Assembly (NCBI GenBank): GCA_964344485.1
Contig: CAYFNF010000001.1
Coordinates: forward strand, 122,115 to 186,114
DNA: 64,000 nucleotides
Reading direction: 5' to 3'
Origin: an uncultured Gammaproteobacteria bacterium
GTDB lineage: Bacteria > Patescibacteriota > Patescibacteriia > UBA9570 > XYC2-FULL-38-9
Under the pieces are notes generated by a model. It searched no databases. It had not been told where the DNA came from and worked only from the letters and a program-made list of their open reading frames with translations. Positions within the stretch are counted from its first letter, which is position 1. Each line of letters starts with the position of its first letter. Made by a program: the position numbers and the translations under genes. Of this stretch, positions 5,754-48,911 are shown piece after piece.

Positions 5754-6209
5754 ATGGGTCGATGGCCAAAAAGACACTCCACGGAGCGACAAAGCACGCA
5801 TATCCGGCGACAGACCGCTGGAGAGTATGATCCGGATGAAAAACGTAGACGTCGAAGGCGACGTCCGCAATATGTACCTGATGACATACCCGCAGACCCA
5901 AGAAAGAGAACCGAAGAGCAGCGCCAGCGGATGCGCTGGGCTATGGATGCGTACGATGAAGAAGATTCAGATGCGCGAGAGAGGAGACGGCAAGCTGAAC
6001 GAGATGCTGATTGGGAGCCGCATCTACATACACAAGAACCAGTAGCATACGTACACCCTGATGATGACTCGCAGCAAGCTCGACAACAACGGGCAATGGC
6101 AGAGCGAGCAAGAAGGCAAGAAGAGGTGCAACAAGGCGGGCCAAGACAAGACGATCCAAGATCACGGACACGACGAAGAAGGCAGTCACGCACACGCAGA
6201 GCAGCATAG
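5754..6209 (+). CDS. Hypothetical highly charged Arg/Glu/Asp-rich protein
   Basis: 151 aa of R/E/D/Q low complexity with an AAGGTGA SD-like site upstream. It competes with the antisense Cys/Ser-rich ORF 5672..6304. The coding strand is uncertain. Confidence 0.35.
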   Translation: MGRWPKRHSTERQSTHIRRQTAGEYDPDEKRRRRRRRPQYVPDDIPADPRKRTEEQRQRMRWAMDAYDEEDSDARERRRQAERDADWEPHLHTQEPVAYVHPDDDSQQARQQRAMAERARRQEEVQQGGPRQDDPRSRTRRRRQSRTRRAA

Positions 6210-8523: not shown

Positions 8524-8607
8524 GCCGGAGTGGTGGAACTGGTAGACACGCAGCGTTCAGGTCGCTGTCCGCATTAGCGGGTGAGAGTTCAACTCTCTCC
8601 TCCGGCA
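8524..8607 (+). tRNA. tRNA-Leu (anticodon CAG)
   Basis: Acceptor stem GCCGGAG/CTCCGGC. D-arm GGTAGAC. Anticodon loop tTCAGg. Long variable arm. T-arm GGTTCAACTC. CCA is not encoded. Confidence 0.8.
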
Positions 8608-8688
8608 CAGATAAACTTTTTTATCGCGAATGCATCTACGCGGAATTGATCCGTAAGATGTGTTGGCACTTAAATCGTAAATTGTTAT

Positions 8689-24121: not shown

Positions 24122-25345
24122 TTATTTTTTAGAACGTGATTTTTTTCGTCGTTGTTTTGCTATAACTAGCACACCACCAACACCCCAGATACATGCGAGT
24201 GAACAGAAGAGCCAACCGATCCACGCGAGACTCATTATAATAGAGAGCACAAAGTATCCGACTACGAAACGCAAGAGTAGCTGTTTCTGCTTATCTTTGG
24301 CTCGGTCTCGATTTACCAGGAAGTAGCCCAGCGCCATTCCTGTAAAGAGTCGACCTAGGAGCATCATCAACACATAGAAGAACATCAGTAAGAACGATAT
24401 CGGGATACCGACAATAGTGACTGCGAATAGCAGTGCGAGTGTCGGTACAATGAAGAAGAATAGTAATCCGCGTTGCCAAGTCTCTCCCACTTTTTCTCTC
24501 ATTGTTTTTGAAACATCCTGTGCCCACTTCGGCCAGATGAGTATCAGCAGCACACCGATCATAGCAAACGAGAAAAAGGATATCAGCCAGCGGGAGAACT
24601 GTTTTTGGTATTTACTCGATACTTCTTCAGCTGTGGCAGGGTCAGTTTTTTGGTATTGGATTAAACTAGTGCCAGTTGCTGACGAATCTACGTCTAGAGC
24701 AAACGGTGAAAAGACTGTTACTTCTTTTGTGAATTCTGCATCCGACCCTACAGAGACTGCTTTACCTTGCACAGACACGGTGTCTTTCATAATTCCGTTC
24801 AGCACCACTTGATTTGCTCGTAGATCTACGCTTTCACCAACCGCACCGTTTATAAAAATCGTACCCGCATAGATGTTCGCCCCGCCTTGCAAGTACGCGT
24901 TCGCAGTGATATAGACAGTATTTGCAAAGATCAGCGTGTTCCCGTAGACAGTTCCGTTGATAGTGGCAGTACGTGCACCGATACGAACCGAATCTTCTAC
25001 ATCCCCGTTTACGGTCACGGTATTTCCTGCTGCAAACAAGTCTCCACCGACGGTTTCATTTACAGTTACGGTGTTTCCAGCAATAGCGACATCACTCTTA
25101 CTCTCTTTATTGATCAATACATCCTCATCTGCCTCGAGATAAATCCCACCAACTGGTTGTAGGTACTCGCTAGATATCTTTGAATTGGTCTCTGGGAAGA
25201 GTCCATTGGTTGCATCTGTGGTGGTACTGGTTTTTGACGCGCTACACGCTGCATTTCCTGGAGTAGTGAGCGCAAAGACCCCGATCAGAATAATAAACAC
25301 CGCGACAAAACAGAGCGCTGGTGCAATAACGAGTTGTTTTTTCAT
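24122..25345 (-). CDS. Membrane protein with a bactofilin-like / DUF4097-like beta-helical repeat ectodomain and a C-terminal multi-TM region
   Basis: Signal peptide, then repeated GNTVTVNGDV / GNTLIFANTV / GTIFINGAV units, then 3-4 TM helices and a KK-rich tail. Confidence 0.55.
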   Translation of the reverse strand: MKKQLVIAPALCFVAVFIILIGVFALTTPGNAACSASKTSTTTDATNGLFPETNSKISSEYLQPVGGIYLEADEDVLINKESKSDVAIAGNTVTVNETVGGDLFAAGNTVTVNGDVEDSVRIGARTATINGTVYGNTLIFANTVYITANAYLQGGANIYAGTIFINGAVGESVDLRANQVVLNGIMKDTVSVQGKAVSVGSDAEFTKEVTVFSPFALDVDSSATGTSLIQYQKTDPATAEEVSSKYQKQFSRWLISFFSFAMIGVLLILIWPKWAQDVSKTMREKVGETWQRGLLFFFIVPTLALLFAVTIVGIPISFLLMFFYVLMMLLGRLFTGMALGYFLVNRDRAKDKQKQLLLRFVVGYFVLSIIMSLAWIGWLFCSLACIWGVGGVLVIAKQRRKKSRSKK

Positions 25346-25431: not shown

Positions 25432-26154
25432 TTACGGCTTCAAAAGTACAGAGACGAGATTGTGCGCTTTGTATCGTGGTACGTGTAGACCGTTGGTTTC
25501 ATAGTATTGGTCTGCAACAGTGAGTCCCACTTCTTTTGCAAGGTGTTTTATCTCTGACGGTTTGAATGCATGGTAGTATCGCTTGGTAATGGTCCGTCTC
25601 TTATTGTCACGCCACGGTACGAGCATGTCATTAAAGTCCATCTTATGTTGACCTAACAGTTTCATGAGCTTTGATCGATAGCGTAGAGATGCGTACTTAG
25701 TTTGCATGAGGTTCCAGTTGGTCATCAAGACAAATCCTCTAGAGCGGACTAGACGTTTAGCTTCTTCCAATGAACGTCGACGATACTCTTTGCTTGGTAT
25801 GTGATGAAAGCTTGCAATCATAAGTACATGGTCAAATGATTCATCTGGGAAGTCGGTCTGCATCATGTTTCCGACACGGAAATCATTTTTTGGTCGCAGT
25901 TGACGTGCAACATTGATCAGTTTTTCGGAAACATCCATGCCAATGTATCTCGCCTTGATTTCGTTGACTAAATCCGCTACTCTGCCGTTACCACACCCTA
26001 GGTCGAGTACGGCTTGTCCAGGTTCAATATACTGCTCAATGATATAACTGACCTCGTACCACTGGTTCATCCGAGTATGTGAAAAGTGCTCGGCGATAGT
26101 GTCGTAGCTTTCCTCAAGTTGAGTGAGGATTTGATCAGCGGTGCGTGTATCCAT
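25432..26154 (-). CDS. Trm9-like tRNA (cm5U34) methyltransferase, class I SAM-dependent
   Basis: AEHFSHTRMNQWYEV, VLDLGCGNGR, FDHVLMIASFHH, MLVPW and RYYHAFKPSEI resemble yeast Trm9 (APHFSQTRYKPW..., VFVPW, RYYHLY...). Confidence 0.65.
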   Translation of the reverse strand: MDTRTADQILTQLEESYDTIAEHFSHTRMNQWYEVSYIIEQYIEPGQAVLDLGCGNGRVADLVNEIKARYIGMDVSEKLINVARQLRPKNDFRVGNMMQTDFPDESFDHVLMIASFHHIPSKEYRRRSLEEAKRLVRSRGFVLMTNWNLMQTKYASLRYRSKLMKLLGQHKMDFNDMLVPWRDNKRRTITKRYYHAFKPSEIKHLAKEVGLTVADQYYETNGLHVPRYKAHNLVSVLLKP

Positions 26155-26160
26155 AGTATT

Positions 26161-27711
26161 ATGCAAAAAGCAATTCAAGAGATTATTACTCGCGCGATTC
26201 AGAAGAAGATTCAGACCGCGCAAGAGTTGAAGCGCGTGAAAGCAGATGTCGCGAAAGAGTTTGGTATTTCAATAGTTCCAAACGCTACTATTGTAGCAGA
26301 ATATCGGCGCATGATAAATCAGGGTGAGCTGGAGCGTGATGAAAAGCTTTGGACATTGTTTTCTAAACGAAAGATTCGGAACCTCTCTGGTGTTGCGGTG
26401 ATTACGGTTTTGACTAAGCCGTTTTTCTGTCCAGGTCGATGTATCTACTGCCCGACAGAAGCGCGCATGCCCAAGTCGTATTTAGCGAACGAGCCTGGGG
26501 CAGCACGGGCGTTGCGCCATGAGTTTGATCCATATAATCAGGTGAGTGCACGGCTGAAGTCACTGCAAGCAAATGGGCATAATACTGATAAATGTGAGTT
26601 GATTGTGTTAGGCGGGACGTGGTCTGCGTATGAGCATGAGTATCAAGAGTGGTTTATCAAGCGATGCTTCGACGCATTTAATGAGCAAGAGTCTGTTGAT
26701 TTGGATCAAGCTAAGCAAGTGAACGAGACCGCTGCACATCGGGTGATTGGTATGACGTTAGAGACACGACCGGATAGTATTACGCAAGATGAAGTAGAAC
26801 GGTTACGTTGGTTGGGGTGTACGCGTATGCAGCTCGGAGTGCAGACAATTCATCAAGATGTGTTGGATCTGGTGAAGCGCGATCAAACCAATGAACAGGT
26901 CGTGACTGCGACGCGGTTGCTGAAGCAAGCAGGGGTGAAGATTTCTTATCATATCATGCAAGGGCTGCCAGGATCTTCTATAGAAAAGGATATTGAGACT
27001 GCACAGCAGGTATTTACCAATCAGGACTATCAACCAGATCATGTAAAGATCTATCCTACAGTAGTGCTGAAGACCTCGGTGTTGTATCACTGGTGGAAGC
27101 AGGGGAAGTATACTCCGTATACAGATGAGGAGTTGCAGCAGTTGTTGATTGAGATCAAGAAGCTAGTGCCAGAGTGGGTGCGAGTAGAGCGTGTGATTCG
27201 GGATATTCCAACTGAGTCCATTCATGCCGGGAACACCAAGACGAACTTACGGCAGATCATGCAACGGCAAGGAGTAGAGTGCGAGTGTATTCGTTGTCGG
27301 GAGCCGCGATATACTGAAGCGACTATAGATGAAGTGGAGCTTGTGAAGCGAGAGTACAAAGCATCAGAGGGAAAAGAGCTTTTCTTAAGTTATGAGTCAC
27401 ATGACAAGAAGATTTTGTTTGCATTTGTGCGACTGCGTTTACAGAAATTAAAAGAGCATTGGATTTCAGAGTTGCAGGACGCTGCAATTGTGCGAGAGAT
27501 TCATGCGTACGGAGTGGTAAAACCTATCGATGCAGGGGAAGGAGCAGTGCAACACATTGGTTTAGGAAAACGATTGATGCAACAAGTAGAAGAGATTGCG
27601 CAGAAAAAAGGATATAAGAAAGTAGCAGTGATTGCTGGAGTGGGAGTGCGGGAGTATTTTAGAAAACTTGGGTATGAGCTACAAGGTGAGTATATGGTGA
27701 AGGAGTTGTAA
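26161..27711 (+). CDS. elp3: Elp3-family tRNA U34 carboxymethyltransferase (radical-SAM domain plus GNAT acetyltransferase domain)
   Basis: Radical-SAM CPGRCIYCP. C-terminal GNAT region IHAYGVV...HIGLGKRLM...YKKVAVIAGVGVREYFRKLGY. 517 aa from MQKAIQ. Confidence 0.75.
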   Translation: MQKAIQEIITRAIQKKIQTAQELKRVKADVAKEFGISIVPNATIVAEYRRMINQGELERDEKLWTLFSKRKIRNLSGVAVITVLTKPFFCPGRCIYCPTEARMPKSYLANEPGAARALRHEFDPYNQVSARLKSLQANGHNTDKCELIVLGGTWSAYEHEYQEWFIKRCFDAFNEQESVDLDQAKQVNETAAHRVIGMTLETRPDSITQDEVERLRWLGCTRMQLGVQTIHQDVLDLVKRDQTNEQVVTATRLLKQAGVKISYHIMQGLPGSSIEKDIETAQQVFTNQDYQPDHVKIYPTVVLKTSVLYHWWKQGKYTPYTDEELQQLLIEIKKLVPEWVRVERVIRDIPTESIHAGNTKTNLRQIMQRQGVECECIRCREPRYTEATIDEVELVKREYKASEGKELFLSYESHDKKILFAFVRLRLQKLKEHWISELQDAAIVREIHAYGVVKPIDAGEGAVQHIGLGKRLMQQVEEIAQKKGYKKVAVIAGVGVREYFRKLGYELQGEYMVKEL

Positions 27712-27731
27712 TTGGGTTGGACTTCATTGTG

Positions 27732-27750
27732 CAGGCAAGAGCCTGTTTTA
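27732..27750 (+). terminator. Rho-independent terminator after elp3
   Basis: caggc-aaga-gcctg followed by TTTT. Confidence 0.6.
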
Positions 27751-27754
27751 TAGT

Positions 27755-27778
27755 AAAAAAAATGAGGACAGGGTCCTC
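27755..27778 (-). terminator. Rho-independent terminator of the high-GC LOG-family gene
   Basis: On the minus strand: GAGGAC-CCT-GTCCTC hairpin followed by T8, overlapping the stop codon by 1 nt. Confidence 0.7.
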
Positions 27779-28545
27779 TAGACGCTAGCGCTTCGCAACT
27801 GCCCGGTCAGGGCACGTTCCGCCTTGGCGCGGTTGCCGTTGGCGTCCAGCACATGGGCGACCGCTTCGGCGGGCTCGTCCGTGAACAGGACATGGAACTG
27901 CTGCTTGCTCAGGGTCTGCCAGTCGCACATGTGCGACAGGTCGGCTCTCACGCACTTCCAGTGATCCTTGCCCAGCAGAGCCAGGGGGATGCGTCGCCCG
28001 ATCTCCTGACCGAGCTGCAGCTTCTGGATGAACATGAACAGCTCGAGTCGGGTCCCGATGCCTCCGGGCGGGAAGATTCCTCCGTCCGCCAGGATCTCCA
28101 TGATCTCGATTCGGGTGCCGAAGAGCTGGTTCGCGATGTAGATGTCCACTGCGGACGGGTCCATCATCTCGAACACTTGTCCATCGGCTTGCCGGATGAC
28201 GATCCGCACTCCGATCAGAGGCTGGGTGTGCGCGTGGACACGGTGCGTCCTGAAGGAGGTCTGCACGATCTCGGGCAGGCCGGGGCAGTGTCCGGAGATC
28301 TGAGCCGCTCCTTGCTCGCCGAGCAGGCGACCGGTCTCGACCATGTGGTCAGCGTACTGCGCATGCAGGCGCGGGGCCTCATCAGCCGAACGGGCGGATC
28401 CGAAGATGCCGATGACCGGCCCGATGTGTGGCTTGAGGAAGTCCGCGTATGCTCGCGTCGTCATGCCGAACTGGTAGACACCTTGCTGCAGCAGCGCCAG
28501 TTGAGCGACCGCTCGTGGGTCGCTGCTCCAAAACTCTCTCGTCAT
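27778..28545 (-). CDS. LOG-family protein (TIGR00730 Rossmann-fold nucleotide-binding; cytokinin riboside 5'-monophosphate phosphoribohydrolase-like); high GC
   Basis: PGGIGTRLELF matches the LOG PGGxGTxxE motif. Start MTREFW has GGAGGAG 8 nt upstream. The + strand ORF 27853..28605 is its antisense shadow. Confidence 0.65.
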   Translation of the reverse strand: MTREFWSSDPRAVAQLALLQQGVYQFGMTTRAYADFLKPHIGPVIGIFGSARSADEAPRLHAQYADHMVETGRLLGEQGAAQISGHCPGLPEIVQTSFRTHRVHAHTQPLIGVRIVIRQADGQVFEMMDPSAVDIYIANQLFGTRIEIMEILADGGIFPPGGIGTRLELFMFIQKLQLGQEIGRRIPLALLGKDHWKCVRADLSHMCDWQTLSKQQFHVLFTDEPAEAVAHVLDANGNRAKAERALTGQLRSASV

Positions 28546-28701
28546 GTTAGGTGCTCCTCCGTCGATTCTGCGACGAAACGATTTCTGGTTATCAACGTGG
28601 GTTGATGCCGATACTGTATGCTCTTTTCTGCTACTTGTCAAAGCGTGAGTGAATGCATGAAATGTGGTATACTACCACGCGTAAATAGTAGTAATAGTTA
28701 T

Positions 28702-35688: not shown

Positions 35689-36840
35689 CTATTGCGCAAT
35701 AATGATCTCACGTCCAACACTTTGCTGTGGTCGACGATATAGTAATGGAGGTCGCTGCAGAGAAAACCCCCCGTTAGAGATAATCTGTTTTATCGGTAGA
35801 TGATGTTCTTGGTTTTTGCTATACCAAAACGGAAGCGCTGCTACGATCACACCGTTTGGCGCAAGTATTGCACGGAACTCTTTAAAGACTTCGGCGTACA
35901 GTTGCTGCAGTTCTTTCTCTATAGAAGGTATCTGCTTGGGGTGCGGCGTAGGCGGTCCTAGATGGCCTTCAAAGATAATTCGGTCAACTGACTGTTTGTG
36001 TATAATACCGTTCTGCACTAGCAGCTCTGCTCGAGAAGCATGAATTGGCACTGGAGGCAGGTCCAACCACTGGAGATTTTTCTTGGTGTCTGTGACTGCT
36101 TTTCTACTGATGTCACTTCCGATCACTTGCGAATAACCGAGCAACAGCGCTTCTTGGAGTACGGTTCCTGAGCCACAGAACGGATCCAGGATCGTGGAAT
36201 CCTCTGTGGGTTGCGCTAGGTTGATCATCATGCGTGCAACTTTGGGTGGAAGCATGCCAGCGCGTACGTCTCGCTGTGGTCGGCCGTAGTCTCGCTTTGA
36301 GAACTTCTGAAACGGTTGAACTGCAAGCGTCTTGCCGAATACGATGCTGTTCGTATCTTTCAACAATACAATCTCCACTCCATTCTTCAGTAAGCGCTCT
36401 TTATGAACAATCACTGATGAGAGCTGTACTTCTTTAGACTCTACAAAACGTGAAGAGACCTCCGCATTCTTGAAGGATTTTTTCAACGCTAGCCCTAACG
36501 TTTTTATGTGCTTCCAGTGTTTCTTTAATTTGATCTCTGGTGAGAGTGCATACAGAGAAAAACCAAAATGGAACTTTGATGTTGGATCCGCTTGCTCAAT
36601 CAACCAGTCAGCAATAGCCTCTTCATCAAATTCACCGATAATCTCAACAATTTTCACAGTCCCGCCAAGTCGTTCCATGAGCGCAGCAGCGTCTAGCGGT
36701 TCTGTGCAGGCCACTAGTGCAACCGAGTGTTTCAGTTGTACATCAGTTACTGGCAGTTCTTGTGATTCAAATACCGCTATCAACTCAGCAAGCGATAACT
36801 CAGGGTGAGAACCAACGATACAAGCGTATTGATGTTTCAT
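35689..36840 (-). CDS. THUMP-domain class I SAM-dependent RNA methyltransferase (Trm14/RlmL-like)
   Basis: N-terminal THUMP-like region. Motif I ILDPFCGSGTVLQEALLLG. An LGPP (DPPY-like) motif IV. Confidence 0.65.
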   Translation of the reverse strand: MKHQYACIVGSHPELSLAELIAVFESQELPVTDVQLKHSVALVACTEPLDAAALMERLGGTVKIVEIIGEFDEEAIADWLIEQADPTSKFHFGFSLYALSPEIKLKKHWKHIKTLGLALKKSFKNAEVSSRFVESKEVQLSSVIVHKERLLKNGVEIVLLKDTNSIVFGKTLAVQPFQKFSKRDYGRPQRDVRAGMLPPKVARMMINLAQPTEDSTILDPFCGSGTVLQEALLLGYSQVIGSDISRKAVTDTKKNLQWLDLPPVPIHASRAELLVQNGIIHKQSVDRIIFEGHLGPPTPHPKQIPSIEKELQQLYAEVFKEFRAILAPNGVIVAALPFWYSKNQEHHLPIKQIISNGGFSLQRPPLLYRRPQQSVGREIIIAQ

Positions 36841-38678: not shown

Positions 38679-39821
38679 ATGTCACTATTCGGTTCGAATG
38701 AAAGCTATTTAGGTATCGATATCGGTAATTCAGCGCTAAAAGTCGTTGAATTAGAGAACGTGAAAGGCCGGCCAAAGCTGTTGACCTATGGGTATTTAGA
38801 GCAATCCAACGAGATCCTGACTTCTAATACAAAAGAGGCAAAAGATAAGATCATTTCAGGACTGGAACACATTCAGAAAGAGTCTAGGACCACTTCGCGT
38901 AACGTAGTTGCAGCACTACCGAGTTATACGGTTTTTACCTCGATCATCCATCTGCCCGAGATGCCAAAGAAGGAGCTAGTTGCAGCAGTGCAGTGGGAAG
39001 CTAAGAAGTTTGTACCCATGCCGCTAGAAGAGATGATTCTGGACTGGAAAATTTTAGAAGACACTAAAGTAGATTCCACTTTTTCCGCCAATGCTGCTGG
39101 TCAGAATGCAGCGCAACAGCAAGAAGCACCAGCACAAGCCGAGGGAGAGAGCCCAAAGATTAAGACTAAAGGCAAGAAGATTTTAAAGATTCTATTAACT
39201 GCAGCACCAAAGGACTTGGTGTCTCGTTATTTAGAGATCTTCAAAGAAGCAAAAATGAATTTAGTGAGCTTGGAGACAGAGAGTTTTGCACTGGAACGAG
39301 CGCTCATTGGTAATGATAAATCTCCGATTATGCTCATTGATGTTGGTGCAGTCGCTACCACGATTAGTGTAGTAGTAGATTCTGTGCCGCTCATTAACCG
39401 TAGTATTGATATCGGTGGACATACCATCACGAAAGCGATCGCGAATAGCTTGAATTTAGATGTGGCCCGAGCAGAGCAATTTAAAAAAGATTTTGGATTA
39501 ACCGAACAAGCAGGTGCAGCAGCAGGGCAGGTACCAAAGCGCATTGAGTTCATGGTATCGTCTATTATCAACGAAATTAAATACGTATTGAATCTATATC
39601 AGAGCCAGGGGCAGGGAAATATTGAAAAGATTGTGCTCGCCGGCGGTTCCGCATGGTTGCCGAATATCACTCAATATCTGAGTCAGGTATTAGGAGTTAA
39701 AGTATTTATCGGGGATCCATGGGCACGCGTGATGTATCCATTAGAGATGAAACCAGTTCTTCAACAACTTGGTTCACGTCTCGCTGTGGCAGTCGGGTTA
39801 GCAATGCGAGAGATCAGCTAA
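38679..39821 (+). CDS. pilM: Type IV pilus assembly protein PilM (actin-like ATPase fold)
   Basis: YLGIDIGNSALKVVELE N-terminus. 380 aa. First gene of the pil operon. Confidence 0.8.
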   Translation: MSLFGSNESYLGIDIGNSALKVVELENVKGRPKLLTYGYLEQSNEILTSNTKEAKDKIISGLEHIQKESRTTSRNVVAALPSYTVFTSIIHLPEMPKKELVAAVQWEAKKFVPMPLEEMILDWKILEDTKVDSTFSANAAGQNAAQQQEAPAQAEGESPKIKTKGKKILKILLTAAPKDLVSRYLEIFKEAKMNLVSLETESFALERALIGNDKSPIMLIDVGAVATTISVVVDSVPLINRSIDIGGHTITKAIANSLNLDVARAEQFKKDFGLTEQAGAAAGQVPKRIEFMVSSIINEIKYVLNLYQSQGQGNIEKIVLAGGSAWLPNITQYLSQVLGVKVFIGDPWARVMYPLEMKPVLQQLGSRLAVAVGLAMREIS

Positions 39822-39874
39822 TGCAGGTGTTGAGGAGGTGTTCTTTGTAAGCAGTATGTACCATCACTACGTCT

Positions 39875-41218
39875 ATGGGCGACATTGATTTTATATCATC
39901 AGACAAGGAGGAAAAACGATCACGGAAACGTCGGGATGATCGTGGTGTTGAGTATACGTCAGGAGAACGGCTCGACGCGCCTCCGAAAGAGAAGAAGCTC
40001 AAGGATAAGAAGAAAAAAAAGGATAAAAAGAAGAAGAAAGAGAAGACATTCAAGCAGTGGAAAAAGGAGAAAGCCAAGCAGCAGAAACCAGAGAAGACGA
40101 AAGGCCCGCAAGATCATATTCCAGAAGCACGAGAACGAGATGACGCTCCAGATTTACTGGATGATTTTGAACGTGCACAAGAGAGCACGCCAACAGTTCA
40201 TGACGCTCCAGAACGAGGAAAGGACGACGCGCCAGATTTATTAGATGCAGCAGCAGCCTCAGCGAAACCGGAGCCACCAGTACCGCAAGAGGACGAAGAG
40301 GTCGCTCCGGATCTATTACATGAATTCACCACACCAAAAGATATCGGGGAGCACCCAGCGCCGAAGCGCGATAAAGAAGAAGCAGGCGCTGAATTGCTTG
40401 CAGCAGTCACTACGGTTCATGATATTGGCGAGCATGAGGTAAAGAAGGCATTGCATAAAGACAGTGCTCCGGACATGACGCAAGTGCGGTCCGGGCCAGA
40501 GGTGCCAGAACCTGAGCGAAAAAAAGTACAGAAGAAGAGAAAGAAGCAGACGAAAAAGCAGGCGCAGCAACAGAAGAAAGGCGCTGCTCGCCCAATGTTC
40601 TCCTTAGGTGTAAATTTGATTCCAGATGAAGTGATTGCAGAGCTGGAGACACGCAATCGGTTGTTAGATTTGGGGTATACTGCACTCGGCTTGATTGCGA
40701 TTGTGTTGTGTGTGTATGGAGCGATGAATATTTACCAGCGTAAGATCGATATCGATATAGAAACCATCAAGCAAGAGATTGAATTAACGAACAGTGACAT
40801 TGAATCATTCCGGCAAGTGCGTACGGAAGCGCAGGATATGCATGATCAACTAGGCGCGCTTACTGATGTGATTGATCAACATGTCTATTGGACTCCGTTA
40901 ATTGAGACTGTTGAAGAATTAACCCTACCGACCGTGTATTATCGCTCTATGAGCGGCTCAGTTCGTACACGCAAGTTCACATTCGAAGTTGTAGGTACGG
41001 ACTACGGTCAAATCGAGAATCAAGTATGGGTATATGAACAGTCACCGTATGTACAGTCTGTCACCACTAGTGCTGCGTCGCAGTATTCTCCGTCAACAGA
41101 GATAACGGAATCCGGAAACGAAGAAGCTGAGACCGAAGAAACCGATGAAGAGCAGTACGTGTCGTTTTCTTTAGTGGTGGAATTTTCGCCTGAATTGTTT
41201 CACCGAGTAATACAATAG
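39875..41218 (+). CDS. pilN: PilN-like pilus assembly protein with a long disordered N-terminal extension carrying repeated acidic APDLL motifs
   Basis: K-rich segment, then three to four [DE][DE]xAPDLL[DH] repeats, a TM helix (LGYTALGLIAIVLCVYGAMNIY) and a PilN-like periplasmic domain. Confidence 0.6.
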   Translation: MGDIDFISSDKEEKRSRKRRDDRGVEYTSGERLDAPPKEKKLKDKKKKKDKKKKKEKTFKQWKKEKAKQQKPEKTKGPQDHIPEARERDDAPDLLDDFERAQESTPTVHDAPERGKDDAPDLLDAAAASAKPEPPVPQEDEEVAPDLLHEFTTPKDIGEHPAPKRDKEEAGAELLAAVTTVHDIGEHEVKKALHKDSAPDMTQVRSGPEVPEPERKKVQKKRKKQTKKQAQQQKKGAARPMFSLGVNLIPDEVIAELETRNRLLDLGYTALGLIAIVLCVYGAMNIYQRKIDIDIETIKQEIELTNSDIESFRQVRTEAQDMHDQLGALTDVIDQHVYWTPLIETVEELTLPTVYYRSMSGSVRTRKFTFEVVGTDYGQIENQVWVYEQSPYVQSVTTSAASQYSPSTEITESGNEEAETEETDEEQYVSFSLVVEFSPELFHRVIQ

Positions 41219-41220
41219 CT

Positions 41221-41877
41221 ATGAATTTTGATTGGAGAAAAATCTATCGAGCACTGAACGCATTTATCACTCGGTTTTATAAGTTTTTTCTTGTTGCTGA
41301 AGTGCTGATCATTTTCTTTATCGGCTGGCTAGTGTTGTTGCGCGGGGAGTACCGCATTATTCAAGAGAGCGGCGTGCTTGAGTATGATTTAGTGACTGAG
41401 CAATTACAAGATCAGCAGGATCGCCTGGTGGAGTTGCGATATCTAGAAGAGCAATATACCACATTGGATCAAGAGCGATTGCGACAACTAGAAGAGGTGC
41501 TTCCGCATTCCTACAATCCGACGGCGCTGATCACGACCATGAATCAATTTGCAGAGCAAGCATCCATTGAGATCGCAAGCATTGACGTAGCACAGACCGG
41601 AACTATAACCACTGAAACTACTAGTACTGCGACAACGGATTCTGGAGAAGAGGAGGAGACAATAGTGGAAGTAGCGAATCCTAATATCAAGACCGTTACA
41701 ATTACGATGAATATCAAGAACAATGAAGGGACATATGGAGAATTGAAGTATTTCCTCTCCGCGCTCGAGACCTTTGTACCTATTCTTGATATGCGACAGC
41801 TTTCATTTTCACCTGGAACCGACAGCATGGCACTACAGTTACAGACATACTATTTTAATTCATCCTCGGCATTATGA
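41221..41877 (+). CDS. pilO: PilO-like pilus assembly protein
   Basis: N-terminal TM helix, then a coiled-coil region and a small periplasmic domain. Position between pilN and pilP. Confidence 0.55.
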   Translation: MNFDWRKIYRALNAFITRFYKFFLVAEVLIIFFIGWLVLLRGEYRIIQESGVLEYDLVTEQLQDQQDRLVELRYLEEQYTTLDQERLRQLEEVLPHSYNPTALITTMNQFAEQASIEIASIDVAQTGTITTETTSTATTDSGEEEETIVEVANPNIKTVTITMNIKNNEGTYGELKYFLSALETFVPILDMRQLSFSPGTDSMALQLQTYYFNSSSAL

Positions 41878-42836
41878 CACCTTCGATCGAAGAACGAAAA
41901 CGAGTACGACGCCGGAAGAAGCAGTTCCGAACACACCATACATCTGGAAAGGAGATTGTATTGTTAGCATTGGTAACAGTGATCGGGGCCTTGGCAGTGT
42001 ATACATCTCAAGATAGACATACTGCGTTTGGCTTGATGGCTGAGTACGCGTACGCAGACGAGATTCCTATTATGACGTCGTTCCGAGTGGAGCCGCTCAT
42101 TAGCGAAGCTGTTCTTGAGCTGGATTTTACAGTAGGCGAAGACGATGTTGTGCAAACACAAGGAATTCTGGTTGACGCAACTAATCCCCCTCCAGTGGAA
42201 GAGGTGCAAGCGTTGAATACTCGTGTGGGAGGGGAAGTCGCTCTGTTCTGGATACGACCCGAGATCGTCTCCTCAGTAAATATCTATCGACGAGAGTTGC
42301 ATGCAGAAGAAGAGGAAGAATTTGAACTTATTCAAGAAAACAATACAGAGCTGTCCTATATTGACGAAGAAGTCAAGAACACTGTGATGTATGAATATCA
42401 GCTTTATTCAACTATGAAGTATGAAGGTGAGTGGCATGAATCCAAGAAATCGCTATCCATTGTGGTACAGCCAGCAGATGAGATTCCACCGTTCTCTCCA
42501 ACTGATATCACCGTGACTACGATAACGACAAAGAAGGGCGCTGCAGGACTTCAGATCTCCTGGGCGAATCCAACTGATGAGGATTTTGATCATGTAAAGA
42601 TATATCGATCCTCAGATTATGGTACGCGTGGAGAAGAGATCGTCACAGTGAAGAAAGGAAAGGATACTACCTATGTAGATACAGAAGCAGATACAAATGT
42701 GATTCAGTACTACACCGTGGTGTCGTACGATGTTGCAGGCAATGGGTCGAGTGAGGACTTCCAAATTCCACTTGCTGGCAACCAGAACCCATTTGCTCCA
42801 TTTCAAGATAATACTCAGCCGAATGAAGGACAGTGA
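41874..42836 (+). CDS. PilP-like / Fn3-like domain pilus assembly protein
   Basis: TM helix IVLLALVTVIGALAVY. Beta-rich C-terminal region. Operon context. Confidence 0.45.
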   Translation: MTPSIEERKRVRRRKKQFRTHHTSGKEIVLLALVTVIGALAVYTSQDRHTAFGLMAEYAYADEIPIMTSFRVEPLISEAVLELDFTVGEDDVVQTQGILVDATNPPPVEEVQALNTRVGGEVALFWIRPEIVSSVNIYRRELHAEEEEEFELIQENNTELSYIDEEVKNTVMYEYQLYSTMKYEGEWHESKKSLSIVVQPADEIPPFSPTDITVTTITTKKGAAGLQISWANPTDEDFDHVKIYRSSDYGTRGEEIVTVKKGKDTTYVDTEADTNVIQYYTVVSYDVAGNGSSEDFQIPLAGNQNPFAPFQDNTQPNEGQ

Positions 42837-44553
42837 TAAAGTAACAATCCTAGAACAGATACAAAGCCGACAGTTGTTATCTCCTCAACAGCTGACGGAA
42901 TTAGCAGAAGAGTCTCGTGCTTCCGGGACTGATATGTTGGATTTGATAGTCACACAGCAGTTGATTGATGAAGAGCAGTTTACAGAAGTAAAAGCTGAGG
43001 TACTTCGAGTTCCGTATGTGCATTTGGTTGATCAAGACATCCCTAATGATGTGTTAAATCTGGTGAGCCAGGATATTGCAGAGAACTACCAACTGGTTCC
43101 GTGGTCAAAGCAGGAAGGAGAAGTGTCGGTTGCAATGGCAGATCCGCATGATTACAAAGCAATCGAAGCATTAGATTTTATTGGACGTAAAGAGAATATT
43201 AAATGGAAGTACTACCTTGCCTCTGATTCAAGCATTTCGTCTGTATTGCGGCAGTACGCGGATCTCACAGACGAGGTCGCTGAAGCGTTGCAAGCTAGCG
43301 AAGAAGGGATGCACGAGGATATTGAAGAAGAAGTGGAAGACTCGGTAAAGAGCGCGCCGATCTCCAAGATGGTGGCAGTGATTTTACGTTATGCAGTGGA
43401 AGGGAGTGCATCGGACGTGCATATTGAACCGACGAAAGACGGTACTCGAGTACGCTATCGTGTGGATGGAGTACTGCATACCTCCTTGCAGATGCCCAAG
43501 AACGTTCACAATTCATTGGTGGCAAGAATCAAAGTACTAGCGAATCTAAAACTAGATGAGACGCGCTTACCTCAAGACGGACGGTTTCATAGTCAGATAG
43601 AAGGACGAGAGGTTGATTTCCGTGTCTCGACATTACCGGTACTTGGTCAAGAGAAAGTGGTGTTACGTATTCTAGATAAAGCAATTGGTATTCGCACCCT
43701 CGCTGAACTTGGGTTTCATGATCGGAATTTACATATGATCGAGAATCATTTAGAGCGTCCACATGGAATGATCCTGGTCACTGGACCGACTGGTTCTGGT
43801 AAATCCACAACACTGTATTCGATTCTACAGGACTTGAATCAAGAAGAGCGGAATATCATTACACTAGAGGATCCAGTAGAGTACAACATGCCAGGGATCT
43901 CTCAGTCACAGATCCATCCGGAGATCGGGTTGACCTTTGCGCGCGGTCTTCGTTCTATCTTGCGTCAGGATCCAGACATTATCATGGTCGGTGAGGTTCG
44001 AGACAATGAAACAGCAGAGCTAGCGATTCATGCTGCGCTCACAGGGCACATGCTCTTGAGCACGTTGCATACAACTGATGCGCTTGGTGCGATTCCGCGA
44101 TTGATTGACATGAAAGCAGAGTCATTCTTGATTGCTTCAGCGCTCAATTTGGTGATTGCTCAGCGGTTAGTGCGAAAGAACTGTGTAGACTGCGTGACAG
44201 AGACACAGCTACCAGTAAAAACAGAGAGTGAAGTATTGCGTGAACTACAATCTATTCCAGAGAAATCTCTTCCAAAAGACATCACCATGAAGTTACCGTT
44301 AACAGTCTATCACGGAGTAGGCTGTCCGAAATGTGAAGGGAGTGGATATCACGGTCGAGTTGCTATCTCTGAGGTGATTGAGATCACTCCACGGCTACAA
44401 GACATCATCGCTTCTGAGGAGATAAATCAATTTGAGTTAGTGCATCGAGAGCTGGAAGAACAAGGTATGGTGAATATGCGCCAAGACGGTATTATCCTTG
44501 CGCTTCGAGGTCAGACCACTATTGAAGAGGTGTGGACAGCAACAACTGAGTAA
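42823..44553 (+). CDS. pilB: Type IV pilus assembly (extension) ATPase PilB/GspE
   Basis: GSPII_E N-terminal domain. Walker A GPTGSGKSTT, Asp box LEDPVEY, Walker B DIIMVGEVRD and His box GHMLLSTLHT are all intact. Confidence 0.9.
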   Translation: MKDSDKVTILEQIQSRQLLSPQQLTELAEESRASGTDMLDLIVTQQLIDEEQFTEVKAEVLRVPYVHLVDQDIPNDVLNLVSQDIAENYQLVPWSKQEGEVSVAMADPHDYKAIEALDFIGRKENIKWKYYLASDSSISSVLRQYADLTDEVAEALQASEEGMHEDIEEEVEDSVKSAPISKMVAVILRYAVEGSASDVHIEPTKDGTRVRYRVDGVLHTSLQMPKNVHNSLVARIKVLANLKLDETRLPQDGRFHSQIEGREVDFRVSTLPVLGQEKVVLRILDKAIGIRTLAELGFHDRNLHMIENHLERPHGMILVTGPTGSGKSTTLYSILQDLNQEERNIITLEDPVEYNMPGISQSQIHPEIGLTFARGLRSILRQDPDIIMVGEVRDNETAELAIHAALTGHMLLSTLHTTDALGAIPRLIDMKAESFLIASALNLVIAQRLVRKNCVDCVTETQLPVKTESEVLRELQSIPEKSLPKDITMKLPLTVYHGVGCPKCEGSGYHGRVAISEVIEITPRLQDIIASEEINQFELVHRELEEQGMVNMRQDGIILALRGQTTIEEVWTATTE

Positions 44554-44566
44554 TTTTTTTACACAT

Positions 44567-45625
44567 ATGGACACAGCAGAACAACTCGCAATCCAAAAGA
44601 TCATCGCTATGGTAGACACCTACCGAGCGGCGTCTTTACATCTTTCGGTTGGAAATCCACCGATGATTCGTGTGGGAGAGAAGTTAGTGCCAGTTCCAGA
44701 GCAGTCCATTGTGACTCCAGAGTTTATGGAGCACATTATTGAAGCTTGGCTTGATGAGAAGAATACTGAACGGCTACAGGTGAATAAAGAATTGATTATT
44801 GCAAAGACATTCGAGACGAAGAAGCGGTTTCGTATCTCTGTGTTCTACCAGCAAGGGCACTTGAGCGCGACGTTGATTCCAATACCTGATGTACTACCGT
44901 CGATTGCAGAGTTGGATCTTCCATCTGAAGCGCAACAGCTCGTAAATTACAAGTCCGGACTCGTCTTATTTATTGGTCCATATAATTCACAAAAAGCGAT
45001 TACTGTCGCGAGCTTTATCGAATATCTTAATCAAACAGCACAGAAGAGTATACTGACGATCGAACACCCAGTTGAGTATCTGTTTAGCGATAACCAATGT
45101 GTGATCGATCAGCGCGAGGTTGGCAAAGATGTGCACAGTACTACTCAGGGGTTGGAATTTGCATTGAATGAGGATGCGGACGTGATCATGGTTTCAGAAT
45201 TAACGGACAGTGAAAGTTTCCAAAAGGTATTAGAGCTTACGAATACTGGTAAGGTGGTCTATGCACTACTGCATGTGAATACTGTACCTTCGGCTATTGA
45301 TACGTTTATTCATAGCTTCGATGCGTCGGATCAAGGGCAGGCACGTGCGGAGCTGGCTTCGAATTTAGTCGGTATTATAAATCAGCGTAGCTTGGTAAGT
45401 AGCACTGGAGATAAAGTGAGTATCTCGGAGGTGATGATACCGAATCAAGCAGTGCGCACGATTATTCAGAAAGGAGAGGTATATCAAATTAACAACATAC
45501 TGCAGACCTCTCGAGGTGAAGGCATGAGGAGTCTGGACGCAGCGCTGCGTTCAGCAGTGGAAGCCGGCAAGATCAGTCAAGCAGAAGCAGCAAAGGTTGC
45601 AGTAGACCGTTCACAGTTTCAATAA
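44567..45625 (+). CDS. PilT-like retraction-ATPase homologue with degenerate catalytic motifs (probable pseudo-ATPase)
   Basis: Aligns to PilT, but Walker A is GPYNSQKAIT (vs GPTGSGKSTT), the Asp box is IEHPVEY (D to H), and the His box is GKVVYALLHV (H to K). Confidence 0.7.
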   Translation: MDTAEQLAIQKIIAMVDTYRAASLHLSVGNPPMIRVGEKLVPVPEQSIVTPEFMEHIIEAWLDEKNTERLQVNKELIIAKTFETKKRFRISVFYQQGHLSATLIPIPDVLPSIAELDLPSEAQQLVNYKSGLVLFIGPYNSQKAITVASFIEYLNQTAQKSILTIEHPVEYLFSDNQCVIDQREVGKDVHSTTQGLEFALNEDADVIMVSELTDSESFQKVLELTNTGKVVYALLHVNTVPSAIDTFIHSFDASDQGQARAELASNLVGIINQRSLVSSTGDKVSISEVMIPNQAVRTIIQKGEVYQINNILQTSRGEGMRSLDAALRSAVEAGKISQAEAAKVAVDRSQFQ

Positions 45626-45631
45626 TACGAT

Positions 45632-46840
45632 ATGGCAGAGTTTGTATATAAAGCACGTAATAGAGCCGGAGACTTAGTTGAAGGCTCGCTTGATGCACCA
45701 ACTATGGAAGTGGTGCAAGACACGATTCGCGAAAAGGATCTGATTTTACTTTCTGTGCGTAAAATGTCTGACCGACAGGTGCTGCAGCGAGTACAAGAAT
45801 TAACGCGCGGCGTTAAAGCAAAAGAGATTGTGGTGTTTGCACGACAACTGTCGACACTCATCTCGGCAACAGTTCCGATTGTTCGGTCTCTGCGAATTTT
45901 AATAAAACAGACTGAGTCCAAAGTACTGCGCACGATCGTCACAGATATTGCTGATGAAGTTGATGGTGGATCGAGGTTGTCTGCTGCCTTGCATCGACAT
46001 CCACGTGTGTTTGACGACTTCTTTGTACACATGATCCGTGCTGGGGAGACCACTGGTCGTCTGGATGAGGTCTTACTTTACTTAGCTGAGCAGAAAGAGA
46101 AGGACTATCAATTAATGCAGCGTATTATTAGCGCATTGATCTATCCAGTATTCATTGTCCTTGCACTTATTGCAATCTTTTTCTTCATGATGATCTACGT
46201 TGTTCCGCGCATGTTAACGGTAGTGATAGAAAGCGGTGCTGAGTTACCGTTAGTTACTAAGATATTGATTACAGTGAGTGATTTTATGCAGGGATTCTGG
46301 TGGTTGTTTGCTATTCTTGCTCTCGCTGGGATCGCTGCGTACGTGATGATGAAATCTAATCCAATGAGTAGACGGTTCTTAGACGAACAGCGGTTACGTA
46401 TTCCGGTGCTCGGTAAGATTATGCACCATATTTACATTGCACGTATCAGCCGCAGCCTCGCGAATCTACTTGCTGCAGGCGTACCAGTAACACGGTCGAT
46501 CGAGATCTCTGCTGATATTGCGGGAAACTATCTCTATCGAGAGATTCTACTCCAAGCGCGAGAAGATGTGGAAGCCGGGCATTCGCTCTCTGAGTCATTA
46601 GAGCGGCATAAATGGGTTCCGCCTATGGTCACGCAGATGATGGGGGTGGGTGAAGAGACCGGGCGTATGGACCAGATCCTTGTTAAAGTTGCTGATTTCT
46701 ATATAGGAGAAGTAGACTCACTCACCAATGCATTAGTGAGCTTGATTGAGCCGATTATCCTAATTTTATTGGGCATTGGTGCTCTTATCATTGTTTCAGG
46801 AATCTTGTTACCGATCTACACGATTACGTCGCAGTTTTAA
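45632..46840 (+). CDS. pilC: Type IV pilus inner-membrane platform protein PilC (GspF family)
   Basis: MAEFVYKARNRAGDLVEGSL N-terminus. Two GspF repeats. 402 aa. Confidence 0.85.
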   Translation: MAEFVYKARNRAGDLVEGSLDAPTMEVVQDTIREKDLILLSVRKMSDRQVLQRVQELTRGVKAKEIVVFARQLSTLISATVPIVRSLRILIKQTESKVLRTIVTDIADEVDGGSRLSAALHRHPRVFDDFFVHMIRAGETTGRLDEVLLYLAEQKEKDYQLMQRIISALIYPVFIVLALIAIFFFMMIYVVPRMLTVVIESGAELPLVTKILITVSDFMQGFWWLFAILALAGIAAYVMMKSNPMSRRFLDEQRLRIPVLGKIMHHIYIARISRSLANLLAAGVPVTRSIEISADIAGNYLYREILLQAREDVEAGHSLSESLERHKWVPPMVTQMMGVGEETGRMDQILVKVADFYIGEVDSLTNALVSLIEPIILILLGIGALIIVSGILLPIYTITSQF

Positions 46841-46863
46841 AAGAAGAGAGGGTCTCTAGAGAG

Positions 46864-46892
46864 TTGTTGCGTATTTGTATCTATGGTATAAT
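46864..46892 (+). promoter_or_regulatory. Extended -10 promoter upstream of pilA (TGgTATAAT)
   Basis: tggTATAAT at about 46884-46892, with a weak -35 TTGTTG 17 nt upstream. Confidence 0.5.
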
Positions 46893-46943
46893 ACAGTATA
46901 TTCATTTATATATATAAATAATTAAGTAATAACGTGCGAAACC

Positions 46944-47465
46944 ATGCAAAAAGACAAAAAAGGTTTCACATTGATCGAGCTGTTAATCGTTATTGCGATT
47001 ATCGGTTTATTGGCGACGTTAGCTATTGTGTCATTGACATCAGCACAACGACGTGCTCGTGATACAAAACGTGTTGCAGATATGAAATCTCTGCAAACCG
47101 GTCTAGAATTATTCTGGAACGCTAGCTCTCGCTATCCGCAATTAGGCGTAGATGCTAATGACTGGGCAGGACTTGGATCAGCACTTGAGAGCTACATGAC
47201 TCAAGTTCCAACAGATCCAAATCATGCTGATGGTGATTTGTACTTCTACTATACCGATAACGGAACAGAATATTGGATTGGTTCAACACTTGAAAGCAGT
47301 AGTGAACAAGCGTTGACGCAGGATGTAGACGGAGCATTGAACGACGGAGCGTACTACTATATCACCTCCACTGGAGTGGGTGATGACATTGACGGTACTA
47401 TTGCTCCTGGTGATGAGCCAGACTGTACAGATGATGTCTATTGTCTCCACGGTACAGCATCGTGA
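46944..47465 (+). CDS. pilA: Type IV major pilin (prepilin)
   Basis: Leader MQKDKKG followed by FTLIELLIVIAIIGLLATLAIVSL, the class III signal and N-methyl-Phe site. Confidence 0.85.
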   Translation: MQKDKKGFTLIELLIVIAIIGLLATLAIVSLTSAQRRARDTKRVADMKSLQTGLELFWNASSRYPQLGVDANDWAGLGSALESYMTQVPTDPNHADGDLYFYYTDNGTEYWIGSTLESSSEQALTQDVDGALNDGAYYYITSTGVGDDIDGTIAPGDEPDCTDDVYCLHGTAS

Positions 47466-47510
47466 TACGGTAGTTATATACTACTCAAATCCCCGGTCAT
47501 TCCGGGGATT

Positions 47511-48329
47511 TTGTTTTATTCCTTGGGCAAAGCAGTGTATAATAGATCTATGCTTGAAATGAGCTTTGGAATAGTCATTTTCTTCTTACTCGGCACTGTT
47601 GTTGGGAGTTTCATTAATGCCACGGAGTATCGGCTCGCGCAGAGTAAGCGTGTATTCTGGGATAAGGGAAAAGGCTTCACACGAAGTGCGTGTACGCATT
47701 GTGATACAACGATTTCTGCTACGGATTTGATCCCACTGCTTTCGTTTCTGTTTTTACGTGGGCGATGCCGTTCTTGTAGAAAGAAAATTTCGTGGCAGTA
47801 TCCGTTGGTAGAGTTAGTGAGCGGGCTGTTGTTTGTGTGCGCTGCTGTTCGATTTGGCTATGGCCTAGAGGCGTTGGCGATCGCTTTTTTCTTCGGGATT
47901 CTGTTATTTATATTTCTATATGACTATAAGCATCAGTTGATTTTAGATGTAGTCTCTGTACCAGCAATGATATTTGCTGGTGCGGTTGGGGTGTTGCTTG
48001 GAAAAGAATTATTAGACTTGGTTATCGGTGCTGCTATCGGCGGTGTCTTCTTTTGGCTGCAGTACGCAGTGTCTCGCGGAAAGTGGATCGGCGGTGGAGA
48101 TATACGTTTAGGCATTCTGATGGGGCTGATGCTGGGGTGGAAGGTGACTATTGCAGCATTAGTTCTTGCATATGTTGGGGGCGCTCTTGTTGCTGTAGCG
48201 CTTCTGTTACAGAAAAAAGCACAGATGCAGTCACGCATTCCATTTGGTACATTTTTAAGCGCAGCGACGTTTATCTGCTTGCTATTTGGTGAAGAAATTA
48301 TTGATTGGTACTTTCAATTACTCATATGA
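47511..48329 (+). CDS. pilD: Prepilin peptidase PilD (A24 family) with an N-terminal Zn-finger
   Basis: CTHC...CRSCRK tetra-Cys and multi-TM aspartic peptidase architecture. The start may instead be MLEMSF at 47550. Confidence 0.8.
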   Translation: MFYSLGKAVYNRSMLEMSFGIVIFFLLGTVVGSFINATEYRLAQSKRVFWDKGKGFTRSACTHCDTTISATDLIPLLSFLFLRGRCRSCRKKISWQYPLVELVSGLLFVCAAVRFGYGLEALAIAFFFGILLFIFLYDYKHQLILDVVSVPAMIFAGAVGVLLGKELLDLVIGAAIGGVFFWLQYAVSRGKWIGGGDIRLGILMGLMLGWKVTIAALVLAYVGGALVAVALLLQKKAQMQSRIPFGTFLSAATFICLLFGEEIIDWYFQLLI

Positions 48330-48910
48330 AGGCACAACGAACAGCTGGGTTCACTATCATCGAGATGTTAGTAGTGGTGGCTGTTGTTGGGGTGGTCGCT
48401 ACGATTATTGCTGTGTCCTTTGTAGGTACTGATTCATCTCAACGGCTGACACAAGCGCGAACGGTCTTAAGTGCTGACGTACATACTGTATTAACGTGGG
48501 CACAGTCAGGGAAAATCGAAGAAAGTACTGGAACGACCCCATATGGGTACGGCATTGTGTTTTGGTTGATCTATCCCGGGCCGGATACAAAAGACTACTC
48601 TATATTTGCAGACCTTAATGATAATGGGGAGTATGATCCTGGAGAGCCGCTGATCAAAGAAGTGAATTTTGAACTAGACGAACTATTAGAAGACATTACA
48701 CTGATTGACTGTACTCCTACGAAGTCGCCTGGAATTGTCATGGGTCCTCCACCGCCACCAACACAGTGTGAATTATACGTCGAGACTCAGAGCGGAGATA
48801 TCACAGCCGTGGGTGCAGCAACCGGGGATATGGAGATAACTCTTCAGCATACAGCGACATTAGATCAAGAAGTAATATCAATAAACACTAGAACTGGTCA
48901 ATTGTATTAA
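48326..48910 (+). CDS. Minor pilin / pseudopilin
   Basis: MKAQRTAGFTIIEMLVVVAVVGVV prepilin N-terminus. Confidence 0.7.
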   Translation: MKAQRTAGFTIIEMLVVVAVVGVVATIIAVSFVGTDSSQRLTQARTVLSADVHTVLTWAQSGKIEESTGTTPYGYGIVFWLIYPGPDTKDYSIFADLNDNGEYDPGEPLIKEVNFELDELLEDITLIDCTPTKSPGIVMGPPPPPTQCELYVETQSGDITAVGAATGDMEITLQHTATLDQEVISINTRTGQLY

Positions 48911-48911
48911 T

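Follow-up and report, generated by a model that had tools for sequence, protein, structure and literature searches.

Modifications of the 5-methoxycarbonylmethyluridine (mcm5U) type at the wobble uridine (U34) of tRNAs are regarded as a eukaryotic and, more recently, an archaeal trait, and so far they have been shown only there. Here we describe a pair of divergent genes in a 64,000-nucleotide stretch of DNA (positions 122,115 to 186,114 of contig CAYFNF010000001.1; hereafter the window) from an uncultured member of the Patescibacteria. One gene encodes Elp3 and the other a Trm9-type class I methyltransferase dependent on S-adenosylmethionine (SAM). The locus is likely to be a two-gene module for tRNA wobble-uridine modification, in which Elp3 and the Trm9-type enzyme would act in succession to yield mcm5U34. 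The evidence supports viewing the pair as a variant of the established Elp3/Trm9 pathway that is bacterial and characteristic of Patescibacteria.

Closest described systems

The methyltransferase has a class I SAM fold in common with the eukaryotic tRNA (carboxymethyluridine(34)-5-O)-methyltransferases Trm9-Trm112 and ALKBH8. The features shared with eukaryotic Trm9 are the N-terminal (V/D)Y..IA.HFS.TR...W helix, an HH dyad, the W..xQ, VPW and RYYH motifs and a terminal asparagine. However, the window enzyme is bacterial, is polar at the positions where Trm112 docks, and is encoded head to head with elp3. Two further differences are an additional helix formed by residues 152-166 and, ahead of the last strand, a loop of 10 residues.

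A stand-alone Elp3, accompanied by a Trm9 orthologue but not by Elp1, 2, 4, 5 and 6, is likewise found in the archaeon Haloferax volcanii (Trm9 HVO_1032) and in the Sulfolobus cluster. Production of mcm5U by the Haloferax Trm9-Trm112 complex and a clustering of the elp3 and trm9 genes in Sulfolobus solfataricus have both been reported (PMC6144793). In contrast to the system described here, which belongs to a bacterium, the Haloferax Trm9 needs Trm112 for both solubility and activity. Archaeal and bacterial Elp3 proteins act alone (PMC13315578). None of the Elongator subunits Elp1, 2, 4, 5 and 6 was seen among the Pfam-annotated open reading frames (ORFs) of the window, although no search was aimed at them.

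The Elp3 proteins of Methanocaldococcus infernus (6iaz, 6ia8) and Dehalococcoides mccartyi (5l7j) share with the window protein the combination of a radical-SAM domain with a lysine acetyltransferase (KAT) domain, and all cofactor motifs. The M. infernus protein also resembles it in its extended, basic N-terminus, a part required for binding tRNA tightly (PMC6367351), but its cluster motif is Cx4Cx2C whereas that of the window Elp3 is Cx3Cx2C.

In reviews, bacterial Elp3 is presented as a rare protein limited to Dehalococcoides (PMC7663514, PMC6367351). A review from 2020 places it only in this genus and notes no evidence for xcm5U in bacteria (PMC7663514), and a paper from 2026 states no more than that Elp3 occurs in "numerous bacteria" (PMC13315578). 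Our full-text literature searches for Elp3 together with CPR (candidate phyla radiation), Patescibacteria or Parcubacteria returned no relevant paper on the module. The bacterial MnmE-MnmG pathway, which produces 5-carboxymethylaminomethyluridine (cmnm5U34), has the same role, namely to modify the wobble uridine at C5 in split-codon-box tRNAs, but it relies on unrelated enzymes and chemistry (GTPase, FAD and folate, with glycine as a substrate).

A head-to-head gene pair

The methyltransferase gene occupies positions 25432..26154 on the minus strand and encodes a protein of 240 amino acids, whose assignment draws on its best match in the Protein Data Bank (PDB), Yarrowia Trm9, as well as on hhalign, a fungal Trm9 hidden Markov model (HMM) and an AlphaFold2 model. 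The elp3 gene lies at 26161..27711 on the plus strand and encodes 516 amino acids with radical-SAM and GNAT/KAT domains, as judged by TIGR01211 and PDB entry 6iaz. The initial annotation described a divergent pair with start codons 6 bp apart, and this is borne out by the ORF coordinates and by positions 26152-26163, which read CAT AGTATT ATG. The two ATG codons thus face away from each other across the 6-bp spacer AGTATT (26155..26160), which was delimited by reading of the sequence and by comparison with related loci.

Both protein lengths correspond to the first ATG of each ORF, where the enclosing frames extend over 25432-26223 on the minus strand for the methyltransferase and 26086-27711 on the plus strand for Elp3. 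These start choices are sound because proteins of 240 and 516 amino acids are recorded identically as NCBI gene products of one 335-kb contig, and because the family alignments of both proteins begin at residue 1. The G+C content at the pair is 0.44-0.48, which is typical of the window, and composition at the locus is not unusual.

The methyltransferase belongs to the Trm9 type

Among 177,635 distinct PDB sequences, the top match to the methyltransferase is Yarrowia lipolytica Trm9 (5cm2_Z), whether the query is the single sequence (1.1e-14) or a profile of 45 family members (9.4e-27). The alignment covers nearly the whole chain, starting at the TR motif near the N-terminus and reaching the strands at the C-terminus. 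With the runners-up 1ve3, 3sm3 and 3l8d the alignment lies mainly in the Rossmann core, and these proteins have no equivalents of R28, the HH dyad, W147, VPW or RYYH. Furthermore, when the family is aligned by hhalign, profile against profile, with 22 fungal Trm9 orthologues, the probability is 100% and the E value is 1.8e-39 over 197 columns.

The reverse comparison used an HMM built from 120 fungal Trm9 sequences, which was run against the 2,422 ORFs of the window and 88 Patescibacteria loci (0.98 Mb). There are exactly 89 matches at E <= 10, with scores of 61-122 bits, and all 89 belong to this methyltransferase family; no other methyltransferase in this set was matched. The window protein scores 101.5 bits (E = 4.7e-30). 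This value, together with the E value of 9e-168 for Elp3 against TIGR01211, places the agreement between ORFs and motifs far beyond chance. On the basis of these profile comparisons the methyltransferase is a genuine Trm9-type enzyme, and the proposal made from the sequence at the outset is confirmed by the PDB ranking, the reciprocal HMM search and hhalign, with no other characterised family scoring better.

Database labels for the homologues are almost always generic. Many are called UbiE at the Joint Genome Institute (JGI), where one homologue is called TRM9. A new annotation could be given to hundreds of entries that now bear the name "class I SAM-dependent methyltransferase" or "UbiE".

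Active-site residues and the predicted reaction

The motif blocks listed in the initial annotation (HFSHTR...W, VLDLGCGNG, FDHVLMIASFHH, LVPW and RYYH) are all present, and most can be matched to functional positions of yeast Trm9. The HFSHTR motif (26071..26088, minus strand, as for all motifs of this protein) includes R28, the counterpart of yeast R29, which positions the carboxylate of 5-carboxymethyluridine (cm5U) and whose R29A mutant is inactive. SAM-binding motif I, VLDLGCGNG (25984..26010), includes D51, which aligns with yeast D72. The HH dyad, H117 and H118 (25801..25806), is equivalent to yeast H115 and H116, and H116A is inactive in yeast. On the basis of conservation in homologues, W181 of the VPW motif (25612..25620) corresponds to yeast W168, and R192 and Y194 of the RYYH motif (25570..25581) correspond to R241 and Y243. 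Finally, N232 (25459..25461) is equivalent to yeast N271, for which recognition of uracil O2/N3 has been proposed; it aligns with the invariant fungal asparagine of DNWW after the 10-residue insertion, which is specific to the Patescibacteria family.

In the yeast Trm9 active site, the alanine mutants R29A, D72A, H116A, W145A, W168A, R241A, Y243A and N271A impair the enzyme, while H24A and Q149A are tolerated (Létoquart et al., PMC4678810). All eight of the essential residues are present in the window protein, and seven of them are near-invariant across 200 homologues: R28 is kept in 198, D51 in 199, H118 in 197, W147 (yeast W145) in all 200, W181 in 187, R192 in 194 and N232 in 194. The eighth, Y194, is tyrosine in 141 and phenylalanine in 17, or either residue in 158. 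The counterparts of the tolerant positions are variable, with H23 (yeast H24) kept in 59 and Q151 (yeast Q149) in 108 of the 200. Thus, the pattern of conservation mirrors the yeast mutagenesis. This conservation and the linkage to Elp3 suggest that the enzyme would methylate cm5U34 to give mcm5U34.

One alternative is that the Trm9 homologue has another Elp3-dependent intermediate as its substrate or leads to some other end product, such that mcm5U34 is not the mature nucleoside. For example, esterification might follow 2-thiolation or ribose methylation, or the methyl ester might be a transient intermediate. There is some precedent in yeast and Haloferax, where cm5U is also diverted to 5-carbamoylmethyluridine (ncm5U) or to unknown products. 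In addition, both the inserted helix and the 10-residue loop are missing in fungal Trm9, and the position of Y243 is strictly tyrosine in only the 141 homologues noted above. However, the near-invariance of seven of the eight residues essential for cm5U binding or catalysis, the retention of tyrosine or phenylalanine at the eighth in most homologues, and a profile similarity to Trm9 that extends over the whole catalytic domain make this alternative unlikely.

Elp3 is complete

The 516-residue protein scores 558.9 bits against TIGR01211 (cutoff 350), with residues 8-516 aligned to model positions 2-522. This match makes it certain that the radical-SAM protein is a full-length Elp3, as had been claimed from the sequence, and it does not belong to a non-Elp3 clade. 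Databases already annotate these genes as Elp3 by means of the NCBI Prokaryotic Genome Annotation Pipeline (PGAP) and TIGR01211. The nearest solved structure is that of archaeal M. infernus Elp3 (6iaz; 439 bits, E = 1.9e-130), which is closer than the only characterised bacterial Elp3, that of Dehalococcoides mccartyi (394 bits, without the N-terminus), and eukaryotic Elp3 structures follow at 329-339 bits.

Three motifs are readily located on the plus strand. The radical-SAM [4Fe-4S] motif CPGRCIYC (Cx3Cx2C; residues 90-97) lies at 26428..26451, a CxCxxC zinc-type motif with the sequence CECIRC lies at 27280..27297, and the acetyl-CoA-binding QHxGxG motif of the KAT domain, QHIGLG (residues 464-469), lies at 27550..27567 and is additionally supported by alignment. 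All three are present in each of the 66 related Patescibacteria Elp3 sequences that were extracted. Pfam matches to GNAT families are at or below threshold; nonetheless, the KAT region aligns fully with M. infernus Elp3.

The protein also has an extended basic N-terminal region (residues 1-75; 26161..26385, plus strand), recognized by its composition of 16 K/R and 9 D/E residues and by a weak match to ELP3_N. The alignment with eukaryotic Elp3 starts at residue 7, within this extension. In archaeal Elp3 the N-terminal extension drives tRNA binding, and the Dehalococcoides protein is without it (Lin et al., PMC6367351).

In the past, acetylation of histones or tubulin was proposed as the function of Elp3, and the GNAT domain is present here. 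Perhaps, then, this homologue is mainly a protein lysine acetyltransferase, or acts on some other RNA, rather than being a U34 carboxymethylase. We consider this very unlikely, given that bacterial, archaeal and eukaryotic Elp3 proteins hydrolyse acetyl-CoA only when triggered by tRNA and not by peptides (PMC6367351). The conserved linkage to a Trm9-type enzyme likewise points to a tRNA pathway.

The gene pair is conserved across Patescibacteria

The named close homologues of both proteins all come from Patescibacteria (candidate phyla radiation), with the nearest in Candidatus Kerfeldbacteria. Five loci were reached through distant homologues (38-59% identity), and in all five a gene of the radical-SAM/Radical_SAM_C type, encoding 517-552 amino acids, divergently adjoins the methyltransferase gene. 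The other neighbouring genes differ among these five loci.

When one genome of each GTDB species was scanned, at least 452 relatives were found, from which the best 80 loci were kept. According to their record labels, these loci come from Kerfeld-, Magasanik-, Nealson-, Kuenen-, Campbell-, Portnoy-, Falkow-, Gracili-, Peregrini-, Komeili- and Uhrbacteria and from Paceibacterota; labels of Saccharibacteria that occur among the loci may be unreliable. Elp3 is head to head with the methyltransferase in 55 of the 80 loci, in tandem in one, and 3-6 kb away in six. In 13 loci there is no Elp3 within 6 kb, and in five the upstream sequence is too short to tell, which leaves 75 informative loci. Flanking genes vary from locus to locus, and the unpaired methyltransferases carry the same signature residues as the paired ones. 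The Elp3-Trm9 pair is conserved across Patescibacteria and is the rule rather than a rarity. For this lineage, the expectation in the initial annotation that bacteria would seldom have such a unit is therefore wrong: 55 of 75 informative species loci have the head-to-head arrangement.

The distance between the start codons in these 55 loci has a median of 9 bp, and it is 12 bp or less in 33. In 14 the two start codons overlap by two nucleotides to form the palindrome CATG, mostly near position 6000 (L011, L022, L025, L030, L032, L034, L035, L040, L045, L049, L055, L064, L079 and L086).

Only similarity ranking points to a possible archaeal origin of the pair. A narrower proposal, in which the pair would be a gene island of recent archaeal origin found in this genome only, could draw on the archaeal source of the nearest solved Elp3 structure and on one related locus that is labelled as archaeal (see below). 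However, we regard this as very improbable. The pair occurs across Patescibacteria, the named top matches of Elp3 are all from this group, and the G+C content at the pair does not depart from that of the window. Moreover, an extended gene order comprising SHMT, a LOG-like gene, Elp3, the methyltransferase, a DUF8173 family protein and phosphomannomutase recurs in another Kerfeldbacteria genome (L001).

The archaeal label belongs to a 4.6-kb contig (L015; DAOPTN010000030.1) assigned to Candidatus Pacearchaeota, a DPANN archaeon, which has the same head-to-head pair with 47% identity to the window for Elp3 and 38% for the methyltransferase. This could reflect mis-binning or a transfer between Patescibacteria and DPANN archaea, and the flanking genes indicate neither an archaeal nor a bacterial source.

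Some neighbouring genes also recur. Directly downstream of the methyltransferase, a gene at 24122-25345 (minus strand) encodes a 407-residue protein with only a sub-threshold match to a beta-solenoid family (FapA), and its syntenic counterpart in L001 is recorded as DUF8173. A gene of the LOG/SLOG family is also repeatedly found beside the pair, namely in the window, at 6082-6645 in L004, at 6033-6587 in L006 and in about 15 further loci. In the window (27778-28641, minus strand) and in L001 it is a PF03641 gene on the Elp3 side. About 15 of the 80 loci carry a PF18306 (LDcluster4) gene downstream of the methyltransferase, at a distance of about 0.1-2.5 kb. The recurring LOG/SLOG gene may have a functional link to the pair or may reflect only synteny at the level of the clade.

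The Trm112-docking surface is not retained

In yeast, Yarrowia, human (ALKBH8) and Haloferax, the characterised Trm9 enzymes work in complex with Trm112 (PMC4678810, PMC6144793). Docking involves a hydrophobic patch on and around strand beta3; in Yarrowia Trm9 this patch, formed by V59, F78, V102, A110, P112 and F116, is buried by Trm112, and the complex is broken by the yeast mutation L91R, which lies at the position equivalent to Yarrowia V102. The equivalents of V59, F78 and V102 are polar or charged in 91%, 94% and 60% of the Patescibacteria family, respectively, where the residues are typically K/R, D/E/N and Q/R/K. The window protein has A48, R69 and R93 at these positions, such that an arginine occurs naturally where L91R disrupts the yeast complex.

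Because sequence alignment shows polar residues in place of the hydrophobic docking patch, the methyltransferase probably acts as a stand-alone enzyme without Trm112. The reading of this gene as Trm9 in the initial annotation consequently holds for the family, although the Trm112-binding patch of known Trm9 proteins is missing. A crude motif scan limited to the neighbourhood of the pair revealed no Trm112-like ORF in the window or in the 88 related loci. If the prediction is right, the family would offer structural biologists and enzymologists a Trm9 that is by nature independent of Trm112.

A second methyltransferase of an RNA-modifying type (PF01170; UPF0020, RMKL/Trm11-like) is encoded elsewhere in the window, at 35689-36840 on the minus strand. 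Trm11 is another client of Trm112 in eukaryotes and archaea.

Proposed pathway

In the pathway that we favour, Elp3 would use its radical-SAM [4Fe-4S] site and its acetyl-CoA-binding KAT domain to add a carboxymethyl group to C5 of U34 by means of a SAM-derived radical, yielding cm5U34. The Trm9-type methyltransferase would then methyl-esterify cm5U34 with SAM to form mcm5U34. Patescibacteria thus probably make this nucleoside. An Elp3-Trm9 module across Patescibacteria would add a feature of the translation apparatus that they have in common with archaea and eukaryotes.

Several observations weigh against this proposal. Pfam and NCBIfam return only generic class I matches for the methyltransferase (Methyltransf_11 and a sub-threshold match to UbiE/MenG). 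The AlphaFold2 model has a predicted local distance difference test (pLDDT) score of 96.3, and when it is compared with the PDB by Foldseek, Trm9 ranks second and is effectively tied with an uncharacterised archaeal methyltransferase and many other class I methyltransferases. Characterised Trm9 enzymes need Trm112, so that activity without a partner is an assumption here, and the 13 loci with no Elp3 within 6 kb depart from the common arrangement. Lastly, cm5U and mcm5U in Patescibacteria are nucleosides whose presence we infer from genes. With regard to the first two points, the generic Pfam and NCBIfam result is uninformative about Trm9 because no model specific to Trm9 is among the matches from either library, and a fold search cannot separate class I methyltransferases from each other.

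The same generic matches, along with the UbiE label that JGI gives to many homologues, are what one would expect of a generic small-molecule or UbiE-like class I methyltransferase that lies beside Elp3 by chance or local synteny. This explanation is extremely improbable. It does not fit with a head-to-head arrangement that is shared by 55 of 75 informative species from many Patescibacteria lineages amid unrelated flanking genes, or with the specificity of the fungal Trm9 HMM for this family. Furthermore, no curated equivalog model from Pfam or NCBIfam and no curated non-Trm9 model reaches its cutoff with the methyltransferase.

A broader form of the favoured Elp3-Trm9 proposal is that Patescibacteria run this pathway, with a Trm112-independent Trm9, in place of MnmE/MnmG, and that the abutting or overlapping divergent starts mark a conserved co-regulatory unit. 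We offer this more sweeping statement tentatively, as a possibility that is somewhat less than even. If it holds, mcm5U34 would be a modification native to bacteria throughout a large part of their diversity. Searches by tblastn with the E. coli proteins found no homologues of MnmE or MnmG in the 0.98 Mb of Patescibacteria DNA, but only about one copy of each would be expected there by chance, and the result is not evidence of absence.

Expression signals near the pair

Because the starts abut, the control region of each gene lies inside the coding sequence of the other. The two genes are probably co-regulated, and control regions nested in this manner would favour co-inheritance of the pair. 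A promoter scan around the pair gave results at the level of chance, with 3 sites where 3.4 were expected. A TAATTAT-like element, a possible -10 box located 20-30 nucleotides upstream of the methyltransferase start, recurs across loci, but it coincides with conserved Elp3 codons (II-K/T), and this overlap makes it unreadable as a promoter. There is weak evidence for a terminator-like hairpin at 27731..27746 (plus strand), 20 bp past the Elp3 stop codon; the consensus scan returned 4 sites in all and 2.0 were expected by chance.

Motifs resembling Shine-Dalgarno sequences are nearly absent upstream of genes in this genome (2 of 30 control gene starts sampled across the window). Since they are so rare genome-wide, we rejected their lack at the pair as evidence for leaderless translation. 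Neither a specific promoter nor a leaderless model is supported by these data.

Other features of the window

The only tRNA gene detected in the window by ARAGORN is tRNA-Leu(CAG), at 8524-8608 on the plus strand. A scan of the whole window at Rfam gathering thresholds produced no match, even to the tRNA family, despite this gene.

The remaining gene content is consistent with Patescibacteria and includes a type IV pilus cluster, LigA, GatC/GatA, NDK, SHMT, FolD, RNase J and a tryptophanyl- or tyrosyl-tRNA synthetase. The pilus cluster appears complete and extends over 38679-51055 on the plus strand, with PilM, a PilO-like gene, a PilB-type ATPase, a second T2SSE ATPase, PilC, four prepilin-like genes and a prepilin peptidase. 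Two paralogous ORFs of 460 amino acids, at 60188-61570 and 62126-63508 on the plus strand, share 57% identity and have no Pfam match. They are located in the only part of the window with a high G+C content, which is 0.55-0.58 compared to about 0.45 elsewhere.

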